Both the position numbers and the translations under genes were made by a program. A stretch of 32,000 nt of DNA, taken from contig CP113000.1 in NCBI GenBank assembly GCA_026625185.1, positions 2,205,622-2,237,621 on the forward strand. The letters run 5' to 3'. Each line of letters begins with the position of its first letter. The stretch's first letter is position 1. This document shows positions 10,691 through 27,102 of the stretch, piece by piece. This DNA comes from Thermodesulfobacteriota bacterium. Its GTDB lineage: Bacteria > Desulfobacterota > WTBG01 > JAGOGO01. Under the pieces are notes generated by a model. It worked only from the letters and a program-made list of their open reading frames with translations. It searched no databases and was not told the DNA's origin.

Positions 10691-11067
10691 TAAAGTTCTC
10701 CGTAAAAAAGAGGGGTATAAGTTACAGAATAAATCGCGTAATGGTTTCCTAACACGCCCTTTTATTTTTTAAATTAAATTTTCTTAATGAATGCTTAGAT
10801 TCGGTTGCTTTTCGGTCTCATTCCCTTCCGGCCATGGATTTTGCTTTCGTAAAATAAATAGGCCGAGCTTACCGTTACGTATGATTTGGTCTATTTTTAA
10901 TGAAAAATTAGTTAGAAAATTGTTTCCACTTTGGTTATTTTTTTGATAAAATTATTATCTAAAAAATAAGTCTCTTTTTTAAAAATCCACATGCTTATTT
11001 TCGGCCCTGACGAAAAGAAAAGCATAGGTGCTTGCCCATTCTGTTATTAGCCGAGAGAAAAAACAAA

Positions 11068-12159
11068 ATGTCAGTCTTTATGCCGCGAAAGATTTACATT
11101 CATCCTGCCGTTCTGAACGATCCGATTACTCAAGGCATCGTAGAGAAGCTGCCGGAGATTCCCGTGGAAGTGCAGAGCAAGCCGAGGATAAAAGCAGAGG
11201 AAGAGACTGATCCGGTTGAAGCCGGAAAACAGATCTGGTTTTTAACTTCATCGCCCGGCCAGCTGGTCAAGGAATGTCCTGCCACGCCCCGGCAGCTTTG
11301 TTGCCGCTATCGGGTAATTAATATTATTACCAACTGCCCGATTGATTGCAGTTACTGTATTCTTCAGGGATATCTTAACAATCCCTTTATTACCATTAAC
11401 GTAAACCTTGAAGATATAAAGGGTCAGGTTACCGAGCTCCTTCGATCTGATCCTCAACATATTTTTCGTATTGGAACCGGAGAACTTTCGGATAGTCTGG
11501 CTTTGGAGGAATACACGGGTTTTTCTTTTCTTTTGGCAAGCTTTTTCCTTTCCCGGAAAAACGGTTTTTTTGAAATCAAAACCAAGTCTCATCACATCGA
11601 AGAACTTCTAAAACTTGATCCGCAGGGAAAGGTAGGAATATCCTGGTCAGTCAACCCTGAAGATATTATTCAGCAGGAGGAAAAAGGAGCGTCAACCTTA
11701 GCGCTTCGTTTAAAAGCCGCGGCGCGCGGTATGGAGAGAGGATATTTGATCGGTTTTCACTTTGACCCCATAATTCACTATCCCGGGTGGGAAGAAAAAT
11801 ACCACGCGGTGGTGAACGCTATTTATGCTTCCCTTAAACCGGATCGGATTATATGGATAAGCGTAGGGGGATTCCGTTACCCGAGATTTTTAAAACCAAT
11901 AATCCGGGAGCGTTTCCCGCAGAGCAATATACTGTGCGGAGAGCTTTTGCCTGGGCGGGATGGAAAATTTCGCTACCTCAAAACCATTCGAGTTGAGATG
12001 TACCGAAAAATAGTTGACTGGATACGAGCCTATAATCCAAAACAGTTTATTTACCTTTGCATGGAAAGTGCTGAAGTTTGGGACCAGGTTTTTGGTTTTC
12101 ATCCGACTAACCGGAATGAACTGGACCGGCTTTTCTCCGCGCGGATCAGGGAATTTTAG
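11068..12159 (+). CDS. Spore-photoproduct-lyase family radical SAM protein (SplB-like)
   Basis: CPIDCSYCILQGYLN supplies the CxxxCxxC radical SAM cluster in the SPL-family context. The N-terminus is IYIHPAVLNDPITQGIV. I prefer the ATG at 11068 (MSVFMPRKIY) over 11032. Confidence 0.7.
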   Translation: MSVFMPRKIYIHPAVLNDPITQGIVEKLPEIPVEVQSKPRIKAEEETDPVEAGKQIWFLTSSPGQLVKECPATPRQLCCRYRVINIITNCPIDCSYCILQGYLNNPFITINVNLEDIKGQVTELLRSDPQHIFRIGTGELSDSLALEEYTGFSFLLASFFLSRKNGFFEIKTKSHHIEELLKLDPQGKVGISWSVNPEDIIQQEEKGASTLALRLKAAARGMERGYLIGFHFDPIIHYPGWEEKYHAVVNAIYASLKPDRIIWISVGGFRYPRFLKPIIRERFPQSNILCGELLPGRDGKFRYLKTIRVEMYRKIVDWIRAYNPKQFIYLCMESAEVWDQVFGFHPTNRNELDRLFSARIREF

Positions 12160-12889: not shown

Positions 12890-12921
12890 GAACCCCTGCT
12901 TCGTCGGGGTTCTTTGTTTTT
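12890..12921 (+). terminator. Rho-independent terminator after the thioredoxin-like gene
   Basis: Stem gaacccc / ggggttc with a 9-nt loop, followed by tttgttttt. Confidence 0.65.
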
Positions 12922-12938
12922 AGAACATTTTATTTTTC

Positions 12939-13141
12939 TTGACTTTTTTATAGAAAAAGGTTAAAAATAAAAAAAATTATTTGACCAAAATAAATGTTTT
13001 TAGGATGACTTGATCGGAAACCCAATCTAATGAACTTGAAAAAGAATCCTTTTGAGATGAGTGCGAGGAGAAGGATTTAAATGAGTTTAAAATAAGGCCG
13101 CATTGCCGGATAGAAAAGGTGAGAGGCCTTTTCCGTTTTTT
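12939..13141 (+). ncRNA. Promoter plus small RNA/leader module, copy A (diverged, with ~45-nt insertion)
   Basis: TTGACT (12939-12944), 17-bp spacer, TAAAAA(T). Then the conserved core ttgagatgagtgcgagga...aatgag...aaggccgcattgccggatagaaaaggtgagaggcctttt followed by a T-run. Homologous to 18934-19075 and 21638-21781. Confidence 0.4.
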
Positions 13142-13363: not shown

Positions 13364-15349
13364 ATGCCCGAAGCAGAAGATCTTTTAAAAGAAGGGCAAT
13401 CATATTTTTTAGGGGGGGATTATGAAAGAGCGATACCTTATTTTAAAGAAGCAATAGATAAAAATTCTCTTATTGCCGGAGCCTACTTTGGTTTAGGCTC
13501 TGCTTTTAGCAGGCTCGGTCGCTACCCGGAAGCCGTGGAAGCTCTTAAACAAGCTGTAAGCCTGCACCCGGGTGACGCTGAAGCCCACCGTAATCTGGGC
13601 GGGGCTTATTACAACCTCGGCCGCTATCAGGAAGCAGTTGAAGCTCTTAAACAGGCTATCCGCCTGCACCCGGATGATGCCTATGCGCACTGTATTTTGG
13701 GGGGGGCCTATATAAACTTCGGCCGCTCTGAGGAAGCCGTGGAAGCTTTTAAACAGGCTATCAGCCTGAACTCGGGTGAAGCCTACGTCCACTCTCTTCT
13801 GGGCGGGGCTTATATGGACCTGGGCCGTCACCAGGAAGCCGTGGAAGCTTTTAAACAGGCTATCAGCCTGAACCCGGATGATGCAGATGCCTACATTAAC
13901 CTGGGCGAGGCTTATTTCAAGTTCGGCCGTCACCAGGAAGCCGTGGAGGCTATTAAAAAGTCCATCAGCCTGAAACCGGATGATTCCTACGGGCATTGTA
14001 TTTTGGGCGGGGCTTATATGAACCTGGGCCGTCATCAGGATGCCGTGGAAGCTTTTAAACAGGCTATCAGCCTGAACCCGGATGATGCTTACGCCCATTG
14101 TATTCTGGGTGGGGCCTATATGAACCTGGGCCGCTATCAGGAAGCCATGGAAGCTCTTAAACAGGCTATCAGCCTAAATCCTGATGATGTAGATGTAGAT
14201 GCCCACAATAACCTGGCCGAGGCTTATTTCAAACTCGGTCGCCATCTAGAAGCAGTGGAAGCTATTAAGCAGGCTATCGACCTGAAACCGGATTTTGCTG
14301 ATGCACACCGTATTCTGGGCGGTGCTTGTTATAACCTGGGCCGTTATCAGGAAGCAGTGGAAGCTTATAAACAGGTTGTCAGCCTGCATTCGGATGATGC
14401 CTATGCTCACTATAACCTGGGTGAGGCTTATGTCAAGCTGGGCCGGCATCCGGACGCCGTGGAAGCTTATAAACAGGCTATCCGGCTGAACCCGGATTTT
14501 CCTGAAGCCCACTATAAACTGGGAAAGAATTATGACACGCTCGGCCGTCAAAAAGAAGCAGTGGACGCTATTAAACAGGCTATCCGCTTAAACCCGAACA
14601 ATGTAGATGCCCACCATAACCTGGGGGTGATTTATTTCAAGCTGGGCCGGCATGAGGAAGCACTGGAAGCTTATAAACAAGCCGTCCTCCTTAAACCCGC
14701 TGATGCTTACGCCCACTGTATTTTGGGTGGGGCTTATATGAACCCAGGCCGCCATGAGGAAGCGGTGGAAACCTTTAAACAGGCTATTGTTCTTAAACCG
14801 GATGATCCCTACGCCTACTATAACCTGGGGGTGAATTATTTCGAGCTGGACCGCCATCAGGAAGCAGTGGACGCTTTTAAACAGGCTGTCCGCCTAAAGC
14901 CCGATTTTGCCGATGTTCACAATAACCTGGGTAAAAATTATGACACGCTTGGCCGCCATCTGGAGGCTGTGGAAGCTTTTAAACTGGCGGTCCGCCTGAA
15001 ACCCGATTTTGCTGAAGCCCACTATAACCTGGGGGTGAATTATAGCAAGCTCGGTCAGCATAAAGAAGCCGTGGAAGCTTTTAAACAGGCTATCCTTCTG
15101 AACCCGGATGATGCCGATGCCCACTATAACCTGGGTATGGTTTATTTCAAGCTCGGTCGTCATCAGGAAGCAGTGAAAGCTTTTAAACAGACTATCTTTC
15201 TGAAACCGGATTTTGCCGATGCCCACTATAATCTGGGAATAATTTTTTTATTTCTCCACAATAAAGGCTCAGCCCTGGAGGAATATAAAATTTTGAAAGA
15301 TTTGAATCAAGATAAGGGTGATGAGTTGTTTAACGCAATTTATGAATAA
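13364..15349 (+). CDS. TPR repeat protein (~19 consecutive 34-aa TPR units)
   Basis: Near-identical units such as HQEAVEAFKQAISLNPDDAYAHCILGGAYMNLGR repeat along the whole protein. Confidence 0.9.
   Translation: MPEAEDLLKEGQSYFLGGDYERAIPYFKEAIDKNSLIAGAYFGLGSAFSRLGRYPEAVEALKQAVSLHPGDAEAHRNLGGAYYNLGRYQEAVEALKQAIRLHPDDAYAHCILGGAYINFGRSEEAVEAFKQAISLNSGEAYVHSLLGGAYMDLGRHQEAVEAFKQAISLNPDDADAYINLGEAYFKFGRHQEAVEAIKKSISLKPDDSYGHCILGGAYMNLGRHQDAVEAFKQAISLNPDDAYAHCILGGAYMNLGRYQEAMEALKQAISLNPDDVDVDAHNNLAEAYFKLGRHLEAVEAIKQAIDLKPDFADAHRILGGACYNLGRYQEAVEAYKQVVSLHSDDAYAHYNLGEAYVKLGRHPDAVEAYKQAIRLNPDFPEAHYKLGKNYDTLGRQKEAVDAIKQAIRLNPNNVDAHHNLGVIYFKLGRHEEALEAYKQAVLLKPADAYAHCILGGAYMNPGRHEEAVETFKQAIVLKPDDPYAYYNLGVNYFELDRHQEAVDAFKQAVRLKPDFADVHNNLGKNYDTLGRHLEAVEAFKLAVRLKPDFAEAHYNLGVNYSKLGQHKEAVEAFKQAILLNPDDADAHYNLGMVYFKLGRHQEAVKAFKQTIFLKPDFADAHYNLGIIFLFLHNKGSALEEYKILKDLNQDKGDELFNAIYE
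13480..15230 (+). repeat. 102-bp tandem DNA periodicity underlying the TPR array
   Basis: Strings such as caggaagccgtggaagcttttaaacaggctatcagcctgaacccggatgatgc recur every 102 nt with few changes. Confidence 0.8.
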
Positions 15350-15492
15350 TGCTAAGAGAAATAACCGGAGCTTGTCGAAGTGCCAGGTGGTGGAGAAGTG
15401 AAGGAATTTGTGTAGTCCGACAAGAACACTAATCTAGGAAGAAGTTGAAGTTTTGAAGTCGCGTTTTTAAATAGAACTAATAAAAAAAGGCG

Positions 15493-15843
15493 ATGGATAT
15501 GAAAAAAATTATTGTGATACTGCTCGCAGTGATTGCCGTTGCTGTTCTTTGGTTTTATTTTACTCACGTCCGGGCGGTACCTATCAAAGACGTCCTGGAT
15601 GATCCCGGTAAATATCAGTCCAAGCCGGTGACCATTTCCGGTCAGGTTGTCGATAGAATGTCGGTGGTATTAGTAAAGTATTTTAAATTGCAGGACAAGA
15701 GTGGCGAAATCACCGTGGTTACACAAAAGGCGCTGCCCGCTATCGGTAAAAAAGTGCGCGTAACCGGAACGCCGGAGCAGAGCTTCGTTATTGGGAAAGA
15801 ACAGTTGCTCGTGTTTATAGAGCAAGATAAAGAAGAAAGGTGA
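15493..15843 (+). CDS. Hypothetical membrane-anchored small protein
   Basis: N-terminal TM helix IIVILLAVIAVAVLWFYF followed by a ~85-aa beta-rich-looking domain. No family recognised with confidence. Confidence 0.5.
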   Translation: MDMKKIIVILLAVIAVAVLWFYFTHVRAVPIKDVLDDPGKYQSKPVTISGQVVDRMSVVLVKYFKLQDKSGEITVVTQKALPAIGKKVRVTGTPEQSFVIGKEQLLVFIEQDKEER

Positions 15844-15951
15844 ACATTTTTTGCTTGCCATTACTAAGGAACCAACCGTTTTGATTTTCAACAACGTTTC
15901 CTAAACCGGTTAAAATACCATGCGAGTGATCTTTATTTCCCAACCAACTGA

Positions 15952-16152
15952 AGAGATGGCACTATCAGCCCCTCCATTGGAATCCGAATTTACCCGAATA
16001 CAGAATTAGCAAAAATCGCACTCGATGAGGGAGTGATCAGATTATCTGATGATTTGCAGTTTCCGAAATTCTACCTGGCCAAAGGACTTGAAAGGTGGAT
16101 ACACCAGACCGTAAATAACTGGATGGCTTCTCGACCATTTAGCCATAGATAA
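15952..16152 (+). pseudogene. C-terminal remnant of a B12-binding-type radical SAM protein (about 66 codons, no start)
   Basis: Manual translation: RDGTISPSIGIRIYPNTELAKIALDEGVIRLSDDLQFPKFYLAKGLERWIHQTVNNWMASRPFSHR-stop. This resembles the conserved C-terminal tail (YPGT.L...A...G.I...DLL.P.FY) of cobalamin-binding radical SAM enzymes. The frame is closed by TGA at 15949-15951. Confidence 0.4.
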
Positions 16153-16238
16153 TCCTTTTTAGGGAGTATTACCAGATTAAGATTCGTGAGATAAAGGCCA
16201 AGAGTATCCTTTCAAAATCTCAGGTTTATGATTATGCT

Positions 16239-16925
16239 TTGAATCCTTATGTCGGATGCCGGCATGCCTGCCTTTATTGCTATGCAAAATTTATGAAGAG
16301 GTTTACCGGCCACAAGGAGACCTGGGGGGATTTTGTCGATGTAAAAATAAATGCCCCTGAACTTTTGGCCCATGAGGTGAAAAGAAAAAAGATCGGGAGA
16401 GTATGGATAAGCGGGGTGTGTGATCCCTATCAGCCTTTGGAGAAAAGATATGCGATTACGAGAAGATGTCTTGAGATACTCGTGGCCAATAGGTGGCCTT
16501 TTACCCTCCAGACTAAATCCACTCTCGTCCTTAGAGATATCCCAATCCTGAAGCTGGCAAACGACAGCGAGGTTGGATTTACTATTACCACGGCAAATGA
16601 GCGCCTAAGGAAGATCTTTGAACCGGGTGCCTCTTCAGTAAAGAAAAGGATAGGGGCATTAGCGACCCTTCATTCCAAAGGGATTAAGACTTATGCCATG
16701 ATAGCTCCGATCCTTCCGGATTCAGAGGGGGTGGTTAATGCGCTCAAGGGTAACGTTGATTATGTGATCCTTGATCGGTTAAACTACCATTACGCGGATT
16801 GGGCATACAAACAATATGGGTTGGCGATGGCCACTAAAGACAGCTTTTTTTCGCAAAAAGGCGAGGCGTTAAGGAAGGCGTTTGAAAAAGAGGGGATTCC
16901 GTGCCAAGTCGTATTTAGCATTTAA
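16239..16925 (+). CDS. Radical SAM protein of the COG1533 / SplB-like DNA-repair-photolyase group
   Basis: NPYVGCRHACLYCYA supplies the CxxxCxxC cluster in the typical COG1533 context. Family-like sequence (IKIREIKAKSILSKSQVYDYAL) continues upstream of the TTG at 16239 as far as the stop at 16146-16148. No ATG/GTG/TTG lies in that stretch. Confidence 0.7.
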   Translation: MNPYVGCRHACLYCYAKFMKRFTGHKETWGDFVDVKINAPELLAHEVKRKKIGRVWISGVCDPYQPLEKRYAITRRCLEILVANRWPFTLQTKSTLVLRDIPILKLANDSEVGFTITTANERLRKIFEPGASSVKKRIGALATLHSKGIKTYAMIAPILPDSEGVVNALKGNVDYVILDRLNYHYADWAYKQYGLAMATKDSFFSQKGEALRKAFEKEGIPCQVVFSI

Positions 16926-17159
16926 AAAATGCACTTACCAGAGAGTCGGGTGAGGGTATTTGCCCGACAAGGGATAACCGGAAGAAAGCAAGCTCCGTTT
17001 ATTTATAGAAAATCTAAGGTTTTGCTAAGACTTAAATTTTATTTTTTCAAGAACCAGTGCTATAATATTATTAGCCGGTTCATTAATAATAGATAGTTTT
17101 AAATCAGGCAATCGACCAATTTATGAACACTTCAGAGATAAAAAGCAGGGCGACCAGTC

Positions 17160-17750
17160 ATGATAAGAAAAGTAATAGATGCAATCATTAACGTACTCAA
17201 ACGATGGGCGAAAACACTCAGGGTGCTTCTCCCGGGAAAAGAAAGGAGCGATGCCCCGAAAAAGAAAGCGGTAGCCTATACCAGCGATATTATCGTGGCG
17301 CGAACCCGTGAGGTCATCAACCGTGCTGGTCAGAAATCGCTGATCACCCGGTTCGCGGAAGAAAACGGCATTGAAGTCGTGGCGTGGTTCGAGGATGAGG
17401 TATATGATGAAGATGTTTTTACACGTCCGGGCATTCAGAAAATGCTGTCATATAAAAAGCCCTACGATATCTTTTTGGTGGAAAGGGTGTGGGCGCTCAG
17501 CCGGAAGATGTTTATCCTAACCGGTTTTTTTAACGTGCTGGGACAGAAGAAAGTAAGACTTCATATTGCCACCCTTTTATGGGACTGCACCTCACAGATG
17601 GTTAGGAGGCTGTTGGCCGGGAAAGGTGTTGTTCCCGCAAAAGTGGTCGAACCGGCTATGGCAGGTAAAGCGTTTCGGATAGTTGAGGTCCGAAGACCGG
17701 AAAAGCCGCACTCCTTAATCGCCCCGCCGATACGAATCCCTGCCGTTTAA
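17160..17750 (+). CDS. Resolvase/invertase N-terminal-domain-like protein (serine recombinase fold, no HTH seen, possibly inactive)
   Basis: AVAYTSD...RFAEENGIEVVAWFEDEV...TRPGIQKMLSYKKPYDIFLVERVWALSR parallels the resolvase pattern YxRVSxxxQ...G..v...f.D.g.SG...RPgl..ll......d.vvv..ldRlsR. The conserved Arg before the catalytic Ser is missing. Confidence 0.4.
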   Translation: MIRKVIDAIINVLKRWAKTLRVLLPGKERSDAPKKKAVAYTSDIIVARTREVINRAGQKSLITRFAEENGIEVVAWFEDEVYDEDVFTRPGIQKMLSYKKPYDIFLVERVWALSRKMFILTGFFNVLGQKKVRLHIATLLWDCTSQMVRRLLAGKGVVPAKVVEPAMAGKAFRIVEVRRPEKPHSLIAPPIRIPAV

Positions 17751-17833
17751 AAGCCTGCCTCTTTAAAATATTTTAACCTTTCGCCAGGCTTCATAATCAG
17801 GGTAGTTTTCCCGTGCCTGGTAGCCCTAAAACT

Positions 17834-18331
17834 TCAGACCTTTCCTCTTGCCAGGAGATCGACCCGTTTCAGCAAGGCTGGGACCCGATGAGAGCCGTGC
17901 ATCACCTTGATTCTTCCTGCCGCCGTATAAGGATCTACTCCGGCAGAGGTCACATACAAAGGCCTTTTGCTCTCCCCTCTGAAAACTTCCACTCCGAATG
18001 AGTCCCGGTACTGTGATTTTGCCACGCCAATGACGCGGGTCCTCCCCGCAAAGAACTCAAAGAGATGCTTGCCAAGACCGGGCCGGTCTCCGAGCATCAC
18101 ATAACCATCAATGAGCATCTCTTCGGGAGTTTCATTGAATTGCTCAACCACCCTGAGAATACAGGGAAGCTCGCGTCGGTAAAACTGGCCGGGTAGGTAT
18201 TGAGTGACTCCGTCGGTGAGTCCGACGTATTCTAAGGCAGGTTCGGGATCGGTATATTGGTGGAAAAGCACCGCCCCCGCCGATGCTCGTCCGTCAGCAA
18301 AGTAGTGAACATCAAAAGCTGCGATCATCAT
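17834..18331 (-). CDS. Endonuclease V family protein (short, 165 aa)
   Basis: Aligns by eye to E. coli Nfi. IAAFDVHY matches IAGADVGF. YLPGQFYRRELPCIL matches YIPGFLSFREYPALL. LIDGYVMLGDRPGLGKH matches VFVDGHGISHPRRLGVASH. Further matches are IGVAKS, PLYVTSAG and RVPALLKRVD. Confidence 0.7.
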   Translation of the reverse strand: MMIAAFDVHYFADGRASAGAVLFHQYTDPEPALEYVGLTDGVTQYLPGQFYRRELPCILRVVEQFNETPEEMLIDGYVMLGDRPGLGKHLFEFFAGRTRVIGVAKSQYRDSFGVEVFRGESKRPLYVTSAGVDPYTAAGRIKVMHGSHRVPALLKRVDLLARGKV

Positions 18332-18542
18332 TCACCTTATCTCGGCGCTCTGCATGGGGCGTAGACTGCGATAATTGAGCCAGGTCAGGGAACAATCAGG
18401 TCACCGATAGTACGATATGCGTTATTACTCTGAACTATGGGGTTAAAAATTCAAGGGGATCACTAAAATGATTTTTGATTTTCTGTAACAATGGCAGTTA
18501 AATACTTTTATTCTCACCAAATCTGGAGGAGGGATGAAAAAA

Positions 18543-18895
18543 ATCGCGCCCCATGCGGGCGCGTGGATGGAAACCAGTTAGTCTGTTTTTCAGAAATCCT
18601 AGTTCATACCTTGCGTCCCATCTGGGTGCTTTGAATGAAACTCATTCACAAGATTCCCGGAACCCAGATTCATCCTTTGTGTCCCTTGTAGGCGCAAGGA
18701 TTGAAACGAGCTCGTTGAGTTCCAGGGACCCTTGTTCATCCGCCGCATCCCTGGCTTGCGCAGGGATTTAAACTAGTCCCTCCACTCCCGGGAGATCTAG
18801 TTCATCCGCGCGTCCCATGTGGGTGCTTTTAATTTTAATATATACCCAAATGATATTTTGTCAAATCGCGCCCACGCGCGCGTGGATGGAAAAAC
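18543..18895 (+). CRISPR. Orphan CRISPR-repeat-derived tandem array, copy 1 (6 repeat-like units, ~66-nt period, no cas genes)
   Basis: The first unit atcgcgccccatgcgggcgcgtggatggaaac and the last unit atcgcgcccacgcgcgcgtggatggaaaaac resemble the type I-C consensus GTCGCGCCCC....GGGCGCGTGGATTGAAAC. Internal units end at 18641, 18707, 18773 and 18839 and are degenerate. The spacer-like segments share 3' halves (..ttcccggaacccagattcatcc / ..ttccagggacccttgttcatcc / ..ctcccgggagatctagttcatcc). Confidence 0.5.
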
Positions 18896-18933
18896 AAAAA
18901 ACAGTTGGAAGTGGCTGATTTTTTTCTTTTTTC

Positions 18934-19075
18934 TTGACTTTTTTCTCCTCATAGGTTAAAAACAGAAAAATATTTACTTAAAAAGAGAATATTTTTGAGA
19001 TGACTGCGAGGAAAAAATCCAATGAGCGTAAAGAAAGGCCGAATTACCAAATGAAAAGGTGATGGTCCTTTTTTG
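18934..19075 (+). ncRNA. Promoter plus small RNA/leader module, copy B (upstream of the permease gene)
   Basis: TTGACT (18934-18939), 17-bp spacer, TAAAAA (18957-18962). The core is ttgagatgactgcgaggaaaaaatccaatgagcgtaaagaaaggccgaattaccaaatgaaaaggtgatggtcc followed by tttttt. Confidence 0.4.
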
Positions 19076-19184
19076 TTGTGATACTTTCCATAAAAGAAAT
19101 AGCAAATTTTTTGATTACAATTATAAGGGAAACCATAAGTTTTTATTTTTAACAAGGTCTCCTTAATTCATAACTCTAAATTGT

Positions 19185-20756
19185 TTGGATTTCTCAATGT
19201 ACGTGGGCATACCTTTTGTTCAAAGAGACTATATCCGCAATCAACACAGATTCTGGGGAGAAATAACCGCTTTTCTCGCTCTGTTTTTTGATAACGTCGG
19301 AACGCTGATATTTTTCAGTGCGATTCTTGTTTTCACTTTCAACTATCCCCCCGATATTATTCTGACGCGCATGATCCCGGGTACAGCTGTCGGAATTTGC
19401 GTAGGCGATCTTGTCTATACGTGGTTCGCCATCCGTTTGAGACAAAAATACGGACACGCCGATGTCACGGCGATGCCCCTGGGTATCGATACACCTTCAA
19501 CCATCGGCATTGCCTATGCTGTCATGGGCCCCGCGTATATCGCCACTCATGACGCGCAGCTCACGTGGCACATCGGCATGGCCACTCTTTTCATGATCGG
19601 CGTTGTTAAAATATTTACCTCTTTTTTCGGTGGATGGGTTCAGCGCATCATTCCCACCGCGGGGCTGCTGGGGCCGCTCGCCGGAATTGGGCTTCTGCTG
19701 CTCGGATTTCTGCCATTGCTCGAAATATTCAATGAGGCTGTCATTGGCATGATCGCCATGGGTCTTATCTTTTCGGCGCTCATGAGCAAGCTGAAGCTGC
19801 CGGGCCGCTTCCCCGGTGTTCTTGCCGCAGTTCTTCTCGGCACGGGTATTCATTTTGCTCTGGGATATGGCGGATACCTTCCGGAATTCACCGCACCGAC
19901 TCTGAAAATGAATTTTTTTTTACCCGCTTTTTCTATCGACTTTTTCAAAACACTGCCACAAAGCATTCAGTATCTGACCATCGCCATCCCTTTCGGCATC
20001 CTGACGATAATCGGCGGCATCAATAATACGGAAAGTGCCCGTCTGGCAGGCGACGACTACCGGACGAGAGATATCTTGCTTACGGAGGCATTCTCATCGC
20101 TGATCGCGGCTTTCTTCGGTGGTGTGGCGCAAACCACGCCCTATATCGGCCATCCGGCATACAAAAAGATGGGCGCGACCTGGTGGTATACACTTCTGAC
20201 AGGACTACTTGTCGGCATCGGCTCCGTGGTCGGACTGCTTTCACTTTTTGTCAGTGTAATTCCACGGGCAGTTATTGGGCCAATTTTTATCTTTATCGGT
20301 TTTGAAATTATTCGTCAGGCCTACAAGGATTCGCCGCCGGCTCATTCTCCTGCGGTAAGCTTAAGCTTTCTGCCTGTTGTCGCCAGTATGGTGCTAATAA
20401 TTCTGGGCCAGTTCATGGGCGCAATGGACGCCACGCCGGATAAATTGCCGTTGCGTTTGCAAATCATGCATCAATCACTGACAATGCTCAGTAACGGCTT
20501 TATTCTAACGGGGCTTCTCTGGGGCAGTATGCTGGCTTTTCTTATTGATCACAAAGCGCGACAGGCAGCTCTTTGCAGTGCTGTCTGCGCCGTGTTGACT
20601 CTCTTCGGCATTATCCATTCGGTGATGCCTAGCGGTGAACTCTACCTGCCCTGGCTGATTACAACTCATGCCCACTACATGCTCGCTGTGGCTTACTTTG
20701 CGCTATCCTGCATCCTGCTTTTGTTGACCGGAAAAACAGATAAAACAGAGGTATAA
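19185..20756 (+). CDS. Polytopic permease, probably NCS2/AzgA-related nucleobase transporter family
   Basis: 523 aa, almost entirely hydrophobic helices. Segments such as DVTAMPLGIDTPSTIG and TTPYIGHPAYKKMGA recall xanthine/uracil-type permease relatives. An ATG at 19197 is an alternative to the TTG at 19185. Clearly more GC-rich than its flanks. Confidence 0.55.
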   Translation: MDFSMYVGIPFVQRDYIRNQHRFWGEITAFLALFFDNVGTLIFFSAILVFTFNYPPDIILTRMIPGTAVGICVGDLVYTWFAIRLRQKYGHADVTAMPLGIDTPSTIGIAYAVMGPAYIATHDAQLTWHIGMATLFMIGVVKIFTSFFGGWVQRIIPTAGLLGPLAGIGLLLLGFLPLLEIFNEAVIGMIAMGLIFSALMSKLKLPGRFPGVLAAVLLGTGIHFALGYGGYLPEFTAPTLKMNFFLPAFSIDFFKTLPQSIQYLTIAIPFGILTIIGGINNTESARLAGDDYRTRDILLTEAFSSLIAAFFGGVAQTTPYIGHPAYKKMGATWWYTLLTGLLVGIGSVVGLLSLFVSVIPRAVIGPIFIFIGFEIIRQAYKDSPPAHSPAVSLSFLPVVASMVLIILGQFMGAMDATPDKLPLRLQIMHQSLTMLSNGFILTGLLWGSMLAFLIDHKARQAALCSAVCAVLTLFGIIHSVMPSGELYLPWLITTHAHYMLAVAYFALSCILLLLTGKTDKTEV

Positions 20757-20794
20757 ATTGGGGCGACCGGATACAGCGAAACCGAATAGGGCAA

Positions 20795-21041
20795 GGTCTC
20801 CGAGCAACACATAACCATCAATGAGCATCTCTTCGGGAGTTTCATTGAATTGCTCAAGCAACCTGAGAATACAGGGAAGCTCGCGTCGGTAAAACTGGCC
20901 GGGTATGTATTGAGTGACTTCGTCTGTGAGTCCGACGTATTCTAAGGCAGGTTCGGGATCGGTATAATGGTGGGAAAGCACCGCCCCCGTCGATGCTCGT
21001 CCGTCAGCAAAGTAGTGAACATCAAAAGCTGCGATCATCAT
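20795..21041 (-). pseudogene. Truncated second copy of the EndoV-like gene (N-terminal ~82 codons only)
   Basis: The track ORF 20703-21041 matches the 17834-18331 protein from MMIAAFDVHYFADGRAS through ...LIDGYVLLGD. Homology then ends at the repeat boundary (~20795) and an unrelated tail follows. Confidence 0.75.
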
Positions 21042-21254
21042 TCACCTTATCTCGGCGCTCTGCATGGGGCGTAGACTGCGATAATTGAGCCAGGTCAGGG
21101 AACAATCAGGTCACCGATAGTACGATATGCGTTATTACTCTGAACTATGGGGTTAAAAATTCAAGGGGAAAAACTATTATTGATTATTGATTTTCTCTAA
21201 CAATGGCAGCTGAATAGTTTTATTCTCACCAAATCTGGAGGAGGGATGAAAAAA

Positions 21255-21596
21255 ATCGCGCCCCATGCGGGCGCGTGGATGGAAACCAGTTAGTCTGTTT
21301 TTCAGAAATCCTAGTTCATCCCTTGCGTCCCATTTGGGTGCTTTGATTGAAACTCGTCAACCTGGTTCCAGAAACCTCAATTTATTTTTTGCGTCTCCTG
21401 TGGGCGCAAGTTTTTCAGTTCCAGGAACTCTGGTTCAACCGCCGCATCCCTGGCTCGCGCAAGAATCTAAACTAGTCCCTTCACTCCCAGGAGCTCCAGT
21501 TCATCCGCGCGTCCCATGCGGGTGCTTTTAGTTATAATATATACATCAAATGAAATTTTGTCAAATCGCGACCAGTGCGGGTGCGTGAATTGAAAC
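21255..21596 (+). CRISPR. Orphan CRISPR-repeat-derived tandem array, copy 2
   Basis: The first unit is identical to copy 1 (atcgcgccccatgcgggcgcgtggatggaaac). The last unit is atcgcgaccagtgcgggtgcgtgaattgaaac. Interior units are homologous to copy 1 but carry many substitutions and a ~10-nt deletion. Confidence 0.5.
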
Positions 21597-21637
21597 ACAA
21601 AAAAACAGTTGGAAGTGGCTGATTTTTTTCTTTTTTC

Positions 21638-21781
21638 TTGACTTTTTTCTCCTCATAGGTTAAAAACAAAAAAATATTTACTTAAAAAGAGAATATTTTT
21701 GAGATGACTGCGAGGAAAAAATCCAATGAGCGTAAAGAAAGGCCGAATTGCCAAATTAAAAGGTGATGGGCCTTTGTTTTC
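21638..21781 (+). ncRNA. Promoter plus small RNA/leader module, copy C (upstream of the SIR2 gene)
   Basis: TTGACT (21638-21643), 17-bp spacer, TAAAAA (21661-21666). The core is nearly identical to copy B, ending ggtgatgggcctttgtttt. It lies ~95 nt before the ATG at 21875. Confidence 0.4.
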
Positions 21782-21874
21782 TTTGAGAAGCACCCAAAAA
21801 TAGATGTTTGAATTAACTATCAAGTCAGACAGAGATAAACAATCAGTTTAACGAATTGGTGAAGAGGTATTTTG

Positions 21875-22798
21875 ATGAATATTGATCTTGTTCCCGACAT
21901 TAAAAAATATCCCCATATTTATGACTCCCACAAGAATAATAAGTTAATCATATTTGTTGGTGCGGGGATGTCGTCCCTTTGGTGATGCAAGAGATGGAAG
22001 GACATGGCGGTTTCTCTAATTGAGTCTTGTTATGAGCTTGAGGCTATAGATTATTGGGCACGGGAAAATCTTTTAACTAAATATGCCATTTCGCCACGCA
22101 AACTGATAACGATCGCCAAAAGTATACTTGGTGAAAAAAAGTACTTGGAGGTTTTAAAAAGAACTCTTCAAATTTGGCCTGAACGAAAGGGAAAATTACC
22201 GAATCTTTTTAACAACCTATTAGCCCTTAACGCTATTTATATCACTACTAATATTGATGACCATTTTTCAGGCCTGTTTGAAAAAAAAGATGTGCATTTC
22301 GAACAAAATGATTTCTCTTCCTCAGTTCTTAAACCAAAAAATATTATCCATTTACACGGAATTATTAATAATCCCCATAGTCTTGTTTTAACTATTGATG
22401 AATATGTTGAACGTTATCAAAATAATCATTTTAGAAAATTTTTAGAATATATCTTTTTTAATGAAGACTATTGCTTTCTTTTTGTTGGTTATGGTGTTGA
22501 TGAAATGGAAATTATTGACTTCATGATTGAGAAATACAGCACTGGGCCAGAGACCTTGAAAAAGCTTATCTATCGCTATTATATTTTATTACCTTTTTTC
22601 CAGAATGAAGAAACCTTAATGAGATATGAACAATTTTATTTTGATCAAATCAATATGACGGTGATTCCTTATGCGATTAACGCAAAAGGATATGATCAAT
22701 TAAATGAGGTAATCGCAACATGGAGAGAAGAATTTGAGAAACAGGGGCAACGAGATGAATTTTATATATTTAATAAAATCATTGAGAAAAATTTATGA
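21875..22798 (+). CDS. SIR2_2-family (defence-type sirtuin/NADase-like) protein, interrupted by an in-frame TGA at codon 37
   Basis: The track ORF starts at 22004. The same frame opens at the ATG at 21875 (gaagagg SD 6-12 nt upstream) and encodes MNIDLVPDIKKYPHIYDSHKNNKLIIFVGAGMSSLW-TGA-CKRWKDMAV.... Motifs present: IIFVGAGMS (Rossmann GAG), ITTNIDDHF (catalytic Asn box), IIHLHGII (catalytic His 35 residues after the Asn) and FLFVGYGVDEMEI. Confidence 0.75.
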
Positions 22799-25700
22799 AC
22801 ATACTTAATGCAGAAGAACAACAAGTACTTTATTTGATAAAAACGGATGCTGATCAGGCTAATTATTTTTTTACTCAAGCAAAATCATTAAAATGGTTTT
22901 ATCCTCTGAAAGATCAAGGGTATTTTTGTCCTGATCACATCCCCTACGATTCAAATGGCAATGCCCTGTTTTGGAATGTTCTCGATTATCTTAAGCGAGT
23001 TTCCGAACAGGTTGAACAGAATTCCGTATACGGTGAAGAATTAATTAACATCATCGGTAGCGTTGTTTACTTCTCGCAAAATGAAAAACAGATCAATAAC
23101 TATCATATCTGGAAGTACTGCGTAAAAATCCTAAATAATCTTCCTGTCGCGATTATTAAAAAATATCTCACGATCGAAGAATTTCGCTCGTGGCTTTCGG
23201 TTTGGACTACTTTTTCTGAGGGAAAAGTTCTACCCATAACACTAATTGGGGGAAGTCTTTTGCCAAAATTTCTTGCCGGAGATTCAACAATTGAATACGT
23301 CGAGACCATTATTGACGTAATCACGTGCATCAAGCTTAGCGGGAAATTTCATCCACTAACGAAGGTTGACGAGATTATTTTAGCCTACAGTTCATACTGG
23401 ATCAGGGATGCTTTTAAAAAAAATTATGAACTAATAGGCCAAAAATGTTCTTTGAACGCTATTTATATTCTTGCTGACAAATTAAAGAAGGTTTTAGAAC
23501 ATAAACAAAAAAAACATTCTGGCAACATAGAGATTGGCGAGGATGTTTATCACATTGAAGTATCAAGAGTCCCCGCAGAAAAATTAAAAGCAGGTGAAAT
23601 TGGATTTCAAGACGGGCAATTCCAGTGTGTGGTTAAACAGTTTTCTCGGCAACAGCTTCAGGATGTTGGCGGGGATCACAGTTACTGGGCGCTTTATAAA
23701 ACTGAACCGCAGATTGAGGTAAAGCAATTTAGTTTTACAGCTATGAGGCAAGAAGCATTCTTGAAGACTATTATAGAAAACTTGCCTCGGGATATTGAGT
23801 GGACTAAGTCTACAAATTTTGACGAAAAACTAAAATATATATTTAAGGGACTTCATGCGGATTATTCTGAAATATGGTTAAAATCCATTGCGAGCGGCGG
23901 TCAAGATTATGAAAGGGACGCCGAAGAAGTTTTAGCCATCATTTTACGCGATATTTTGCTGGCAAAATGTGAAGCAAATAAATCTGAAGGCAAGAAGATA
24001 CTATGTTCGTTTCTAAGCGATCATTATCAATTCCCTATTTTTAGAAGGTTTGTTTTGCTTTGTATTGATAAATACTGGATCAATTTCTATGATCTTTTTG
24101 ATAAATTTTTTGAAATAGTTCCAACTGCCTTGGAAGAATCGGCTTACGAGGTAGAGTTGTATGATATTTTAGTCAACCACAATCAGGAATTTAACCTCGG
24201 CCTTAGAACGAATCTGAAAGAACTAATTGATAATGTCCCTGCATACTATGTCAAAGAAGGTGAAAAACTAACAGAGTATTGGAAATACAAATGGCTCTCC
24301 CCATTGCGGCACAATCCCGATTTTTCCGCCTTGTATGAAAAAGCAAAACAAAAAACCGAACCAAAAGATGGTAAGCCTTATGAACCCAGGCGTTTAAGCT
24401 TTGAAGCTGGTGTGGTCAGTCATAAGTCGCCAATCTCCAAAGAAGAGATTTTGGAAATGCCTGTTTCCGAATTTGTGAAGTATTTAAGTGAATTTAAAGG
24501 AGCAGACTTTTGGCGTGGGGCTTTTGATGGGGAGCCCGACAAAGAAGGACTTGCCGAGGCGTTTCACGCGGCGGTAAAAGAGAATCCCAAGAAATTTACT
24601 GACGAAATAGATGCTTTTTGGGGTGTTGATTATTTTTATCTACATAAGGGATTGTTTTGGGGATTTAGGGAAGCGTGGACTGCTAAAAATGAACTTGATT
24701 GGGAAAAAATTTTTAATTTCATTCTAAAATATTTCAAGCGAAATAAAGAATGTATTCTAAAAGAAGCATTTCAGGCTCAAGGAAACGATAGCGGGGAGGG
24801 TAAATATATTTATCTTGTCGATGATGTTGTTGGCTTAATCGCTGATGGATGCAGGGATGATGCACGAGCGTTTGATTTAAAGTATTTCGATAAGGCAAAT
24901 CAAATTTTTGAATTGGTGTTACCCTTACTTAAAGGGGAAAAAAATCCTGACACACAAAGAGATGCCTTGAGCTATGCCATGAATACAACGCTTGGTAAGA
25001 CAATTGAGGCGTATATTTCTTTTGCGTTGAGGGCAACAGGGGCCACAAAGGAAAAAGAAGAGAATTGGGGAGAGATAAAGTTTGAACGTTTTTTTACTAA
25101 AGGTGGTATAGAGGCATACATATGGTTTGGGTGTTATCTCCCACAGATGAAATATTTGGATGAGAAGTACACGGAAGAAAAAATAAAACTTTTTGCCTTA
25201 AAAAAAGCAGATGACTTTAAATGGCAGATGTTTATGGAAGGGTATCTGTTCGCCCACAAAGTATATCCAGATCTATATTCTTTAATGCGGGCTCATTATA
25301 TAATGGCCTTAGAAAATAAAATATTCGAAGAACGGATAGATCGTCGGCTTGTTTCCCATATTGCTTTGGGATATTTATATTACGGAGAGAGCCTCCAGGA
25401 AAAAAATCCAGATGGGAACTCCAGTTTATTCTGGAAGATGCTAACCGAAGCTGGTGCGAGAGGTAAAAGTGATCGATGGTTAGAGATAGCTGGATTTTTT
25501 TGGTCGGAAGGAGAGGGGATGGTAAGGAAAACGAAAAAGGATGTTGAAGGGAAATCTTCCGAAGAAATTAAAAAGAAAATTTTGGATTTCTGGTGTTGGA
25601 CTTATAACCAACAGAAACTCGCAGAAGAGAACTTGGGTGATAGATACAATGCTTTCTTAGAACGAATGGCAAAATTAACCATTTTTTTAGACTCGATTGA

Positions 25701-26007
25701 TGAAGAAAACGAAAAGTGGTTGCTTCTATGCGCCCCGCATGTTGCTCGTCAGTATGATGAGATGTTCTTTATTGAATCCTTAACCAAATTCGAAGACCTA
25801 GAAAGCATTAAGCGGATCGGTAAAATTTTTTGGCAGGTATTGGAGAATGCTACCCCTACCTTTAAACAGGAAAATATAGAGCTTATTGTCCGTAGAATTT
25901 TTGAAGTCGCCCCTAATATTGCTGAGGATATTTGCAATATTTACGGCAGGCGAGGTGTTCATTTCCTTAGGCCTATTTGGGAAGAATATCAGAAAAAGAA
26001 ATATTGA
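22795..26007 (+). CDS. Large (1070 aa) protein of unknown function, partner of the SIR2 gene
   Basis: Uninterrupted 3.2-kb ORF whose ATG overlaps the SIR2 stop (ATGA at 22795-22798). Rich in W/F/Y/K/E. No Walker A, nuclease, protease or TM motif found by eye. Composition suggests a helical repeat-like protein. Confidence 0.8.
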   Translation: MNILNAEEQQVLYLIKTDADQANYFFTQAKSLKWFYPLKDQGYFCPDHIPYDSNGNALFWNVLDYLKRVSEQVEQNSVYGEELINIIGSVVYFSQNEKQINNYHIWKYCVKILNNLPVAIIKKYLTIEEFRSWLSVWTTFSEGKVLPITLIGGSLLPKFLAGDSTIEYVETIIDVITCIKLSGKFHPLTKVDEIILAYSSYWIRDAFKKNYELIGQKCSLNAIYILADKLKKVLEHKQKKHSGNIEIGEDVYHIEVSRVPAEKLKAGEIGFQDGQFQCVVKQFSRQQLQDVGGDHSYWALYKTEPQIEVKQFSFTAMRQEAFLKTIIENLPRDIEWTKSTNFDEKLKYIFKGLHADYSEIWLKSIASGGQDYERDAEEVLAIILRDILLAKCEANKSEGKKILCSFLSDHYQFPIFRRFVLLCIDKYWINFYDLFDKFFEIVPTALEESAYEVELYDILVNHNQEFNLGLRTNLKELIDNVPAYYVKEGEKLTEYWKYKWLSPLRHNPDFSALYEKAKQKTEPKDGKPYEPRRLSFEAGVVSHKSPISKEEILEMPVSEFVKYLSEFKGADFWRGAFDGEPDKEGLAEAFHAAVKENPKKFTDEIDAFWGVDYFYLHKGLFWGFREAWTAKNELDWEKIFNFILKYFKRNKECILKEAFQAQGNDSGEGKYIYLVDDVVGLIADGCRDDARAFDLKYFDKANQIFELVLPLLKGEKNPDTQRDALSYAMNTTLGKTIEAYISFALRATGATKEKEENWGEIKFERFFTKGGIEAYIWFGCYLPQMKYLDEKYTEEKIKLFALKKADDFKWQMFMEGYLFAHKVYPDLYSLMRAHYIMALENKIFEERIDRRLVSHIALGYLYYGESLQEKNPDGNSSLFWKMLTEAGARGKSDRWLEIAGFFWSEGEGMVRKTKKDVEGKSSEEIKKKILDFWCWTYNQQKLAEENLGDRYNAFLERMAKLTIFLDSIDEENEKWLLLCAPHVARQYDEMFFIESLTKFEDLESIKRIGKIFWQVLENATPTFKQENIELIVRRIFEVAPNIAEDICNIYGRRGVHFLRPIWEEYQKKKY

Positions 26008-26352
26008 TACCAAGAGGTCATAAAATCGAAAACTTTTTGGGGAAGCATCCGGGTAGGTCTACACTGCAAGTGAAGTAAATCTTCGCGGGATAAACGTTTG
26101 ACAAAATATATAAATTGAATAACTCATCAAGAGAAAAGAGGGACGTTGACCAATATTTTCAAAATTCGGGTGAAGTTGAGGACTAAAAAGTACGAAGGGA
26201 TTGCGTCATTTCCCCTCGCAACTATCTGCCTGCTTTCATTTTTTAAATATAAAGGGGGTTATTATGGAAAAGAATGAAGTTGTAGTGGTAGATGTTCAAA
26301 TGTCTATGTGGTCAATGATGCGCGACGGTCATCAGTAACTTTCAAAACTGAT

Positions 26353-27102
26353 ATGAGACGTAGAACAATAATGGTATTGACCCTTTTAGTATTCGTTGCC
26401 CTTTTGGTGGCGCTCCGGTATTTGCCGCTTGAGAGAATATTGCTTTTTTATCCCAGTCACCATTCCCCCAATAACAGCCTTACACCCTGGGTTAAGAATG
26501 GCGAAATCATCGGTTACGCGCGCAAGATAGAATCGCCAAAAAATGTATGGCTGATGCTTCATGGAAACGCCGGGCAGGCATCCGACCGCTTATACGCAGT
26601 GCCTTGTTTTTCAAGTGACGATTCGGTCTTTATTCTCGAATATCCGGGATACGGTGATCGCAACGGTATTCCATCGAAAGAGACTTTTAATCGCGCGGCT
26701 CAAGAAGCCTACCTTTTTCTCAAAGAAACGTATCCTCACCTTCCGGTCTGTGTAGTCGCGGAATCGATTGGATCAGGACCGGCTTCGTCCCTTGCCGGCC
26801 TGGCTCAAAAACCGGATAAGTTCGTTTTTATCGTTCCTTTTGATAAACTTTCTTCGGTAGGCGCAGATCACTTTCCCTCCATTCTGGTGTATCTGATACT
26901 TAGGAGCAATTGGGATAATATAACGGCTCTTTCAAATTATAAAGGCCCGATTGATATTTTTGGCGCTGAAGCCGACACTATTATCCCGGTGCGGCACGCG
27001 AAGGCTCTTGGGGCTGCTCTCCCTACCGCGAAACTGACAATCATTGAGGGTGGGCATAATGATTGGTCTTTTGAGGGTCGCGTGCAGATAAGGAATCCAT
27101 AA
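26353..27102 (+). CDS. Alpha/beta hydrolase with N-terminal membrane anchor
   Basis: Contains an HGNAG oxyanion-type motif, the nucleophile elbow AESIGSG and a C-terminal GGHND. I prefer the start MRRRTIMVLTLLVFVALLVAL at 26353 over the GTG at 26308. Confidence 0.75.
   Translation: MRRRTIMVLTLLVFVALLVALRYLPLERILLFYPSHHSPNNSLTPWVKNGEIIGYARKIESPKNVWLMLHGNAGQASDRLYAVPCFSSDDSVFILEYPGYGDRNGIPSKETFNRAAQEAYLFLKETYPHLPVCVVAESIGSGPASSLAGLAQKPDKFVFIVPFDKLSSVGADHFPSILVYLILRSNWDNITALSNYKGPIDIFGAEADTIIPVRHAKALGAALPTAKLTIIEGGHNDWSFEGRVQIRNP

Follow-up and report, generated by a model that had tools for sequence, protein, structure and literature searches.

Direct repeats carrying a CRISPR-like array around a permease gene in a Thermodesulfobacteriota genome

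The repeat pair and its contents

A stretch of 32,000 nucleotides from the genome of a Thermodesulfobacteriota bacterium (GenBank assembly GCA_026625185.1, contig CP113000.1, positions 2,205,622 to 2,237,621 of the forward strand; hereafter the window) contains two direct repeats, A1 and A2, which lie on either side of a permease gene (Table 1). Each repeat consists of the 5' end of a gene resembling that for endonuclease V (EndoV) on the minus strand, the region upstream of this gene, the relic of a CRISPR-like array, and a promoter/RNA module marked by a TTGACT box. An initial annotation of the window had described this content in both copies, along with collinear repeats of ~990 bp at an offset of ~2710 nt and the permease as the only gene between them, and all of this was confirmed by a repeat search, by alignment with MAFFT and by a listing of open reading frames (ORFs).

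Along the alignment of A1 with A2 the offset falls from 2710 to 2699. Of the alignment columns, 906 match, 73 mismatch and 21 contain a gap, which corresponds to 90.6% identity, or 92.5% if gaps are left out. This identity is patchy. The copies match perfectly over runs of 179 nt (the core in Table 1), 102 nt (18506-18607), 80 nt and 69 nt, and are only ~80% identical, with a 13-nt indel, over the ~290 nt of the array segment at 18608-18895. Given their direct orientation and these identical runs, the repeats constitute a substrate for homologous recombination. No transposase or insertion sequence (IS) was found in A1 or A2, which hold just the EndoV 5' part, the array and the module, and the repeat search found no inverted repeats at their ends; they are thus unlike the arms of a composite transposon. 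A tyrosine-integrase domain is absent from the 20 window proteins that were scanned against Pfam, and there are no tRNA genes in the window. The sole recombinase found there is a small resolvase-like protein, and the likeness to an integron ends with a single border feature held in common, the terminator of the module.

Table 1. Positions of the repeats and of the genes and sequence features associated with them in the window.
Feature	Position	Strand	Basis
Direct repeat A1 (EndoV 5' part, upstream region, fossil array, module)	18085..19076		repeat search, alignment
Direct repeat A2 (content as A1; right side abuts Dsr1-like genes)	20795..21781		repeat search, alignment
179-nt core without A1/A2 differences	18281..18459 (A2: 20991-21169)		identical-run listing
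Array relic, copy 1 (R1-R5 start at 18543, 18609, 18675, 18741, 18807; R6 18865-18893)	18543..18893	+	repeat comparison
Array relic, copy 2	21255..21596	+	alignment
Sigma-70-like promoter between R5 and R6 (TTGACA, 16-17 nt, TATATT)	18837..18864 (A2: 21536-21564)	-	near-consensus, predicted
Reverse complement of R1 as intrinsic terminator (7 G-C pairs, seven T)	18535..18563 (A2: 21247-21275)	-	predicted
Module, copy 1 (TTGACT box, ~95 nt, bidirectional terminator hairpin 19034-19069, T run)	18934..19078	+	covariance match 18985-19078, 101.6 bits
Module, copy 2 (directly upstream of Dsr1-like genes)	21638..21782	+	covariance match 21689-21782, 107.2 bits
Module, copy 3 (older, ~77% identical; upstream of TPR gene, outside A1/A2)	12933..13138	+	covariance match 13042-13138, 95.6 bits
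Short EndoV-like gene, full length, 165 aa	17834..18331	-	PF04493, 2.5e-08
EndoV' pseudogene ORF (82 EndoV codons, 20795-21041, and 30-codon tail)	20703..21041	-	ORF listing, domain scan
Permease gene (probable start ATG 19197, 519 aa; 523 aa from upstream TTG)	19185..20756	+	ORF listing
CAAGGTCTCC, copy 1 (34 nt upstream of permease ATG 19197)	19153..19162	+	motif search
CAAGGTCTCC, copy 2 (spans permease-tail/EndoV' junction)	20792..20801	+	motif search, alignment
Small serine-recombinase-like (resolvase-family) gene, 196 aa	17160..17750	+	domain scan
Dsr1-like defence gene, three pieces	21875..26007	+	PADLOC

The initial annotation had allowed that the duplication might be an artefact of assembly. 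This is rejected, because the same arrangement recurs in at least four independent assemblies, which were retrieved by exact-protein look-ups. It is present as a whole in a 25.5-kb NCBI contig (L001/L006/L009/L108). Contigs from the Integrated Microbial Genomes (IMG) sample 3300019861 end at 18421 (L002), cover 18319-21131 (L007) and start at 21140 (L109), and contigs from Logan SRR21915714 cover 19016-20837 (L008) and start at 21720 (L110). The inner junctions are 100% identical to the window in L007/L010 and L008, and 98.7% identical in a variant, L020 (18439-21169); the outer links are present in L004 and in L109/L110. Contig ends of L002, L003, L007, L020 and L109 are located in the 179-nt core, and such a breakage of short-read contigs is what a true repeat predicts.

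Two of the metagenomes concerned, JARDUI and JARDUJ, are DGG-1A and DGG0 of the methanogenic, benzene-degrading OR/DGG-B consortium (PMC10190668). According to PMC13101534, this consortium is dominated by two co-resident Desulfobacterota, ORM2a, with a closed genome of 44.1% GC, and ORM2b, the two having an average nucleotide identity of 89.9%; term searches of that paper turned up neither CRISPR nor an account of this region. The window probably derives from ORM2a ('Candidatus Anaerobenzenivorax'), and a sister strain with a related locus, described below, probably is ORM2b.

The first 82 codons of the full-length EndoV-like gene sit within A1. The protein matches PF04493 with 34.3 bits (cut-off 23.4) over profile positions 19-133 of 198, and phmmer aligns its residues 2-108 with a solved endonuclease V, 4xpu. 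The aligned part includes the DV, RE(L/Y)P, DG and VAK motifs, which we take to hold the catalytic Asp, Glu, Asp and Lys of endonuclease V. The protein falls short of the classical full-length fold (~198-220 aa) by ~50 C-terminal residues, and it scores far under the NCBIfam equivalog cut-offs. Its 821 homologues, mostly of 165-180 aa, make up a widespread short subfamily; source names in this subfamily include Syntrophorhabdus, Nitrospirota and Desulfobacterales. The locus of a more distant homologue (L019, 76% identity) has neither an array nor cas genes, so that EndoV is not generally tied to CRISPR. The small resolvase-like gene is convergent with EndoV and has been kept beside it in the sister strain. 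Only the catalytic domain of its product was matched, and the gene would be at most a candidate for a link to the rearrangement.

The second copy of the EndoV sequence, EndoV', is the 82-codon fragment with an unrelated tail that the initial annotation had placed 38 nt past the permease stop codon, where the EndoV homology does begin; the tail has 30 codons and overlaps the 3' end of the permease gene in antisense. EndoV' stops soon after the DG motif and is without the segment that bears VAK. It differs from EndoV by eight nonsynonymous changes and one synonymous change (omega 2.4). At six sites EndoV' is distinguished from both copy 1 and the sister strain (five are unique to copy 2, and at one all three differ), and a codon reading by eye places all six among the nonsynonymous changes. 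To judge from this pattern, EndoV' is a truncated, decaying pseudogene that is not under purifying selection.

The permease gene presents the opposite regime. Its omega is 0.24 when compared with the 98.7% variant and 0.12 when compared with a homologue that lies in unrelated flanks, values that point to purifying selection on a functional gene, a diverged copy of a conserved transporter that is either additional or relocated. The family has more than 5,000 matches, and several homologues come from Smithella; the label given to several of them by JGI is 'AGZA family xanthine/uracil permease-like'. The permease itself has no sequence match in Pfam, NCBIfam or PDB, be it to the Xan_ur_permease profile of NCS2/AzgA-type purine permeases or to a solved relative, and its similarity to the window's own Xan_ur_permease protein (gene 29649-30992) is faint and local (E 0.003). 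It had been called GC-rich, which holds in a relative sense: its GC content is 50.4% as against 43.4% for the window, but several neighbouring segments over other genes reach 50-55%, and a foreign origin on the grounds of GC content was rejected for this reason.

In a relative, the permease homologue is flanked by an HU gene and by a small gene without annotation, which itself lies downstream of a DUF3175 gene. The homology of that locus to the window is restricted to 19238-20757, and its flanks have no similarity to the flanks of the permease in the window. Missing from them as well is a 10-mer, CAAGGTCTCC, which occurs twice in the 32-kb window (0.05 occurrences expected), once upstream of the permease and once at its junction with EndoV'. 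The last 7 nt of the junction copy, GGTCTCC, are at the same time the first 7 nt of the repeat (18085 in copy 1). There is no further similarity between the two sites around the 10-mer. The possibility that the region upstream of the permease is a decayed piece of EndoV was rejected, as nothing but the 10-mer is held in common.

The array relic has five repeats (R1-R5) with an exact period of 66 nt, followed by a sixth, R6. R1 and R6 are well kept and resemble type I-C repeats, while R2-R5 are strongly degenerate; in copy 2 the 3' handle of R3 has been lost in a 13-nt deletion, and this copy is nearly identical to the array of the sister strain. R1 (ATCGCGCCCCATGCGGGCGCGTGGATGGAAAC) falls into a known class of repeats: with R6, it has in common with the type I-C repeat of Xanthomonas oryzae (GTCGCGTCCTCACGGGCGCGTGGATTGAAAC; PMC8406640) the 3' half GGGCGCGTGGAT(T/G)GAAAC and a G+C stem. 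The period of 66 nt and the decay of repeats along the array are also seen in orphan or degenerate arrays of the type I-C class. Unlike in those arrays, the repeats here fall well short of identity, the strains share the "spacers", which are in part alike, and there are no cas genes in the window; the adjacent cas operon of the sister strain is of type III-A and has an unrelated array of its own.

Tandem Repeats Finder did not report the array. Rfam searches, with gathering thresholds on the whole window and permissively on 18330-19200, found no meaningful match to either the array or the module; the array had a single weak one, of CRISPR-DR9 to R3 (18.9 bits). The spacers are the same in copy 1, copy 2 and the sister strain, and hence show no turnover; those after R2-R4 have a TTCC.GG.ACCC-like core in common when read by eye. 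None of the spacers has a second match in the window or in the part of the related loci that was searched, and searches of viral contigs with one spacer and with the 3' half of R1 returned 0 hits and 1 uninformative hit, respectively. No cas domains were found among the 20 window proteins scanned, so there are no matching cas genes among them. The array would thus appear to be a non-functional relic with repeats of the type I-C class.

A promoter-like site on the minus strand faces the array and EndoV and is kept in all strains aligned. In combination with the predicted terminator formed by the reverse complement of R1, it would give rise to an antisense RNA of ~290 nt or to an attenuated long EndoV leader. 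A 15-codon ORF (MKKIAPHAGAWMETS) lies over R1 (18534-18581; 21246-21293 in copy 2); it starts from an ATG, and its Shine-Dalgarno sequence (GGAGGAGGG) is strong. It was rejected as a coding sequence, since an indel in L017 shifts the frame (alignment read by eye).

Mini-arrays of the CreR/CreTA type have degenerate repeats that guide Cas regulation. The sister strain resembles them in having degenerate repeats beside the promoter region of its cas genes, conserved between strains. The array differs from such mini-arrays in that no partial match of a spacer to a nearby promoter was found, in that there are 5-6 units instead of one, and in that two copies persist here in a window without cas genes.

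A covariance model of the module was built from seven copies. Apart from the three matches in the window, it matches L015 of the sister strain at 9261-9354 and 16270-16364, and the more distant relatives L027 at 12914-13009 and L029 at 2857-2952 and 4319-4383. There are two copies in each longer sister-strain locus and one full-length copy each in L027 and L029, with a further partial one in L029. The TTGACT box and GTTAAAAA are invariant in the family, the unpaired 5' half (GGGAUGACUGCGAGGAG..AUGAGC) is conserved, and the terminator bears one compensatory change from G-C to A-U. The module has the appearance of a family of small-RNA genes present in several copies, or of a leader. It is ~150 nt long, has no match in Rfam, and is found upstream of unrelated genes (TPR, permease, Dsr1-like, cas6, abhydrolase). 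Two minus-strand ORFs of 68 and 56 aa over the module are rich in Phe, and their N-termini differ between copies.

A conserved border with variable cargo

In the sister strain the EndoV protein is 90% identical to that of the window, and the flanking DNA is ~91% identical. The resolvase-like gene, EndoV, the array and the module follow each other as in the window, and the gene cas6 begins ~80 nt past the module. It is succeeded by a gene of the Cas_NE0113 family, two small genes, cas10 and csm2-csm5, then by toxin-antitoxin and AbiE genes, Card1, cas1 and two cas2 genes, and finally by a genuine array of 18 repeats, a 23S-IVP gene, an abhydrolase gene and the gene of a solute-binding protein (SBP). 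The 37-nt repeat of the genuine array (L023, 3763-5049) is unrelated to the fossil array, which is at the opposite end of the locus. By this synteny, with cas6 behind the module, the repeated unit is homologous to the EndoV-cas6 intergenic region, that is, to the border on the cas6 side of a type III-A CRISPR-Cas locus. What the initial annotation had seen as a duplicate of EndoV and array can therefore be described more closely as the conserved border on the left of a hot spot in a defence island; in the sister strain this hot spot is occupied by a III-A CRISPR-Cas system.

The III-A locus of the sister strain is complete; it spans L104 994-19932, and L105/L023 are the contig LQYC01004451.1. 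Further features of it are an AF_1859_N domain in Cas6, an MJ1673-like gene, AbiEii and PIN genes, and HepT/MNT pairs in L104. A scan of the genome collection with the Cas10 of the sister strain yielded just one unrelated locus.

The T run of the module terminator is the shared end of the homology between A1 and A2, of that between A2 and the sister strain (which stops at 21784 in L015) and of all module copies. To the right of this point the lineages differ in what they carry before a second conserved element, the leader of the abhydrolase gene. The interval holds the III-A CRISPR-Cas system in the sister strain and the Dsr1-like system in the window; in L029 the module lies ~650 nt upstream of the conserved abhydrolase leader, and in L027 a spacer of 137 nt separates the module from the abhydrolase gene. 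On the right side, homology to the window resumes at 26191 in the sister strain and at ~26040-26055 in L028/L029. An insertion hot spot thus begins at this terminator, the end of which is a point of recurrent insertion. Variability also extends beyond it: in L025 and L033 the SBP gene directly adjoins the TPR gene, and thus the window is variable as a whole from ~15.4 to 27.1 kb.

This region (~15400-27100), which varies from species to species, holds a 116-aa ORF and the radical SAM, resolvase-like, EndoV-like, permease, Dsr1-like and abhydrolase genes, while the relatives compared for it (L025, L033, L024, L027) have zero or few genes between TPR and SBP. The TPR gene (13513-15237, 661 aa) is made up of ~17 tandem 102-nt units with 73% matches, the largest tandem repeat in the window. 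Two radical-SAM genes occur in the window, a spore-photoproduct-lyase-like one at 11032-12159 and one of 228 aa at 16239-16925 beside the resolvase-like gene; the second of these regions contains two adjacent radical-SAM ORFs in the sister strain.

The cargo to the right of A2 in the window is a Dsr1-like defence gene in three pieces, namely an N-terminal one of 36 aa, a SIR2 ORF of 264 aa (22004-22798) and an ORF of 1070 aa (22795-26007), the last two overlapping by 4 nt. The 36-aa piece is ended by an in-frame TGA (21983-21985) just after its GAG motif. The PADLOC Dsr1 profile PDLC04166 is matched by the SIR2 ORF (3.2e-65) and by the 1070-aa ORF (5.9e-103). A SIR2 domain and a long C-terminal region that match the profile are as expected for DSR1 (defence-associated sirtuin 1), but this profile is a single model of 1227 positions, and the match is here spread over three ORFs. 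L109 and L110 match the window here with 100% identity. Since three assemblies agree, the TGA stop is real; the gene is possibly inactivated.

History of the two copies

When copy 1, copy 2 and the sister strain are compared site by site, the pattern changes from segment to segment. Copies 1 and 2 are closest to each other in three segments, where the sites unique to the sister strain number 8 (EndoV 5' part), 4 (the 128 nt upstream of EndoV, over which the copies are identical) and 28 (module). At 18460-18535 and 18608-18895, by contrast, copy 2 and the sister strain are nearly identical (4 and 5 private sites), and 73 private sites make copy 1 the outlier. Copy 1 still has the 3' handle of R3 that is absent from the other two, so its array cannot come from theirs. 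The first pattern would make the duplication younger than the split of the two strains. The second suggests at least one further recombination tract, of ~430 nt, that joins copy 2 and the sister lineage, or else a replacement of the array in copy 1. The right edge of this tract lies in 17 nt that are common to all three sequences, too short for a path switch by an assembler. Of the "duplication plus capture" proposed by the initial annotation, the duplication is thus upheld by several assemblies, while a single event of this kind is contradicted by the mosaic phylogeny of the copies.

Allele swaps between assemblies of the same culture are confined to the repeats. Over 16.9 kb shared with the independent contig behind L006, the window shows 17 differences, of which 15 are mismatches and 2 are gap positions. 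All 17 are swaps to the allele of the other copy at sites that distinguish A1 from A2 (18965; 21170-21217; 21750/21757/21770), and there are none outside the repeats. Gene conversion or unequal crossover would explain this pattern, and mis-phasing by the assembler fits it equally well. The alleles at 21750-21770 lie at most 32 nt from unique sequence and differ between assemblies of the same culture, which favours a real polymorphism, although consensus polishing could mimic it. There appears to be an exchange of sequence between the two copies.

Three short contigs of 1.1-2.3 kb from sister samples combine the copies in other ways. L011 runs from the permease 3' end through EndoV' with copy-2 alleles to the array and module of copy 1 and on to the permease 5' end, which would be the junction predicted for an unequal crossover or for a circle (permease-repeat-permease). 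In L012, EndoV' is followed by the array of copy 1 and the module of copy 2, and L005 has the full EndoV, the upstream region of copy 1 and the array of copy 2, a deletion-type join.

The repeats are probably the diverged copies of an old segmental duplication, which affected the left border of a hypervariable defence island. We infer the following order of events. An extra copy of the conserved permease gene would have been placed behind the module in this lineage, its segment already being bounded by the 10-mer CAAGGTCTCC before the duplication. Through the microhomology GGTCTCC, which is common with EndoV, the EndoV 5' part, the array and the module may then have been copied to the far side of the permease. 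This might have happened by tandem duplication of a 2.71-kb unit, with replacement of the cargo behind the second module before or after the duplication, or by integration of a circular form. The outcome would be one intact EndoV gene and one truncated copy, which has since decayed, with the permease staying functional afterwards. Later homologous recombination of the copies with each other, and of the array segment with the sister lineage, could have produced the mosaic identity.

Several points weigh against this account. Tandem duplication requires an extra step, the loss of a second permease copy. In shuffled sequences the local score was as high or higher in 8 of 300 cases, which makes the 10-mer only moderately improbable. 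The segments call for different trees and are compatible with more than one order of events, and the array transfer could have gone either way, from an ORM2b-like donor into copy 2 or by replacement of the array in copy 1. The swaps fit mis-phasing across the identical stretches of 179, 102, 80 and 69 nt as well as they fit exchange. Finally, the assignment to ORM2a is based on 43.4% GC, co-occurrence in metagenomes and ~90% identity, with no accession match.

A mis-assembled single locus, or a chimera of the co-resident ORM2a and ORM2b, would account for the occurrence of both strains in the same samples, for short-read contigs that end in the identical core, for the ORM2b-like array segment of copy 2 and for variant blocks that are combined differently between assemblies. 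Such an error is nevertheless very improbable. The copies differ at 73 sites plus indels, and their junctions are found separately: an array of the copy-1 type is joined to the 5' side of the permease in the separate assemblies L007, L020 and L011, EndoV' is joined to the permease 3' end in L007 and L008, an array of the copy-2 type is joined to Dsr1 in L109, and the module end of copy 2 is joined to Dsr1 in L110. The ORM2b-like patch, whose 17-nt right edge would not allow a k-mer path switch, gives way to a module of the ORM2a type (28 sites unlike ORM2b), and the 25.5-kb contig and the window each span everything. An active unit, in which ongoing RecA-dependent recombination between A1 and A2 releases 2.7-kb circles and produces tandem permease arrays and deletions without the permease, possibly selected for dosage, is rather unlikely, though of the alternatives it has the most to recommend it. 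The 179-nt identical core in direct orientation would serve it, L011 is exactly the recombinant junction predicted, with the crossover in the core, L005 resembles the reciprocal, deletion-type join, and the same-culture allele swaps are confined to the repeats. But a de Bruijn path switch inside an identical stretch gives the same contigs, these are short (1.1-2.3 kb), L012 requires two switches, and the 9% divergence that has been retained argues against frequent homogenisation. The excision or amplification of the permease foreseen by the initial annotation thus stands as far as the repeats look recombinogenic; its products are only hinted at by short metagenome contigs in which path switches are possible.

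Integration of the permease segment or of the 2.7-kb unit by a recombinase such as the neighbouring serine-recombinase-like protein, at CAAGGTCTCC or at the module terminator, much as happens at an integron or att site, seems improbable. It draws on the 10-bp direct repeat on both sides of the permease segment, on the same terminator hairpin preceding different cargo in different lineages and on the resolvase-family gene adjoining EndoV in both strains. Yet the inserted segment has no recombinase and its ends, read by eye, no inverted repeats, the 10-mer is missing from the permease flanks in the relative, the resolvase-like protein is small (196 aa) with the catalytic domain alone matched, and a 0.99-kb duplication is not a product of site-specific integration. 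About as hard to credit is retention of the unit for a function, with array relic and module acting as regulatory RNAs (of the CreR/CreA kind, a small RNA or a leader) that were duplicated to control the permease and Dsr1-like genes. In its favour, the two copies and one sister-strain variant do not differ in R1 and the first spacer, the family of modules is conserved (with the compensatory terminator change and the invariant unpaired 5' half), and strong promoter-like and terminator-like sites flank the array on the minus strand. Against this, R2-R5 are ~20% diverged between copies with no compensatory maintenance, the hairpins of R3 and R4 in copy 2 are degraded, the spacers match nothing else in the window or the part of the related loci searched, no cas genes are among the window proteins scanned, Rfam yields nothing, and conservation of the small ORF over R1 does not extend to L017 (read by eye). 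Less probable still is a cassette-accumulating platform with the module as its landing pad, in which a dedicated recombination mechanism, possibly mediated by the adjacent small serine recombinase, would insert cargo at the terminator hairpin, sometimes with a duplicated pad that also supplies a promoter or regulatory RNA. Every island segment would then start with a module: the TPR block, the permease and the Dsr1-like genes in the window, the III-A system in the sister strain, and the abhydrolase gene in relatives.

Comparison with known systems and significance

Classical duplication-amplification units of bacteria are duplications bounded by direct repeats that undergo RecA-dependent deletion, amplification and gene conversion. 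The locus resembles them in the direct orientation of the copies, in ~1 kb of homology with a core far above the minimal recombination substrate, in the one gene between the copies, in microhomology at the junction, and in swaps that are confined to the repeats. It differs in that its repeats are a gene fragment and an intergenic region, not IS elements or rRNA operons, and in that the copies are 9% diverged and mosaic, with amplification and excision only suggested. The geometry is also that of a Campbell-type insertion-duplication, as an intact and a 3'-truncated gene (EndoV and EndoV') surround inserted DNA. Here, however, there is no vector or element, the 2.7-kb circle is hypothetical, and the distribution of alleles is more complex than a single crossover predicts. 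As in other defence islands and hot spots, swappable cargo is placed between conserved flanks, the module terminator on the left and the abhydrolase leader on the right; in contrast to these, neither an integrase nor a tRNA or att site came to light, a small-RNA-like gene forms the left flank, and one of the borders has been duplicated.

We therefore see in this locus an ordinary rearrangement by microhomology or homologous recombination at the border of a hot spot in a defence island, with the array relic and the module as passengers, by mechanisms that are already known. Because variant blocks are combined differently between assemblies, the published sequence may be mis-phased here, and a possible ongoing exchange between the repeat copies is among the points of interest. 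The locus is a clean natural example of defence-island remodelling, in which the same border is followed either by III-A CRISPR-Cas or by a broken Dsr1-like system and a permease of a housekeeping type. Comparison of the co-resident strains reveals a strain-specific difference in defence gene content and, for work on ORM2, an extra, selectively maintained copy of a permease.

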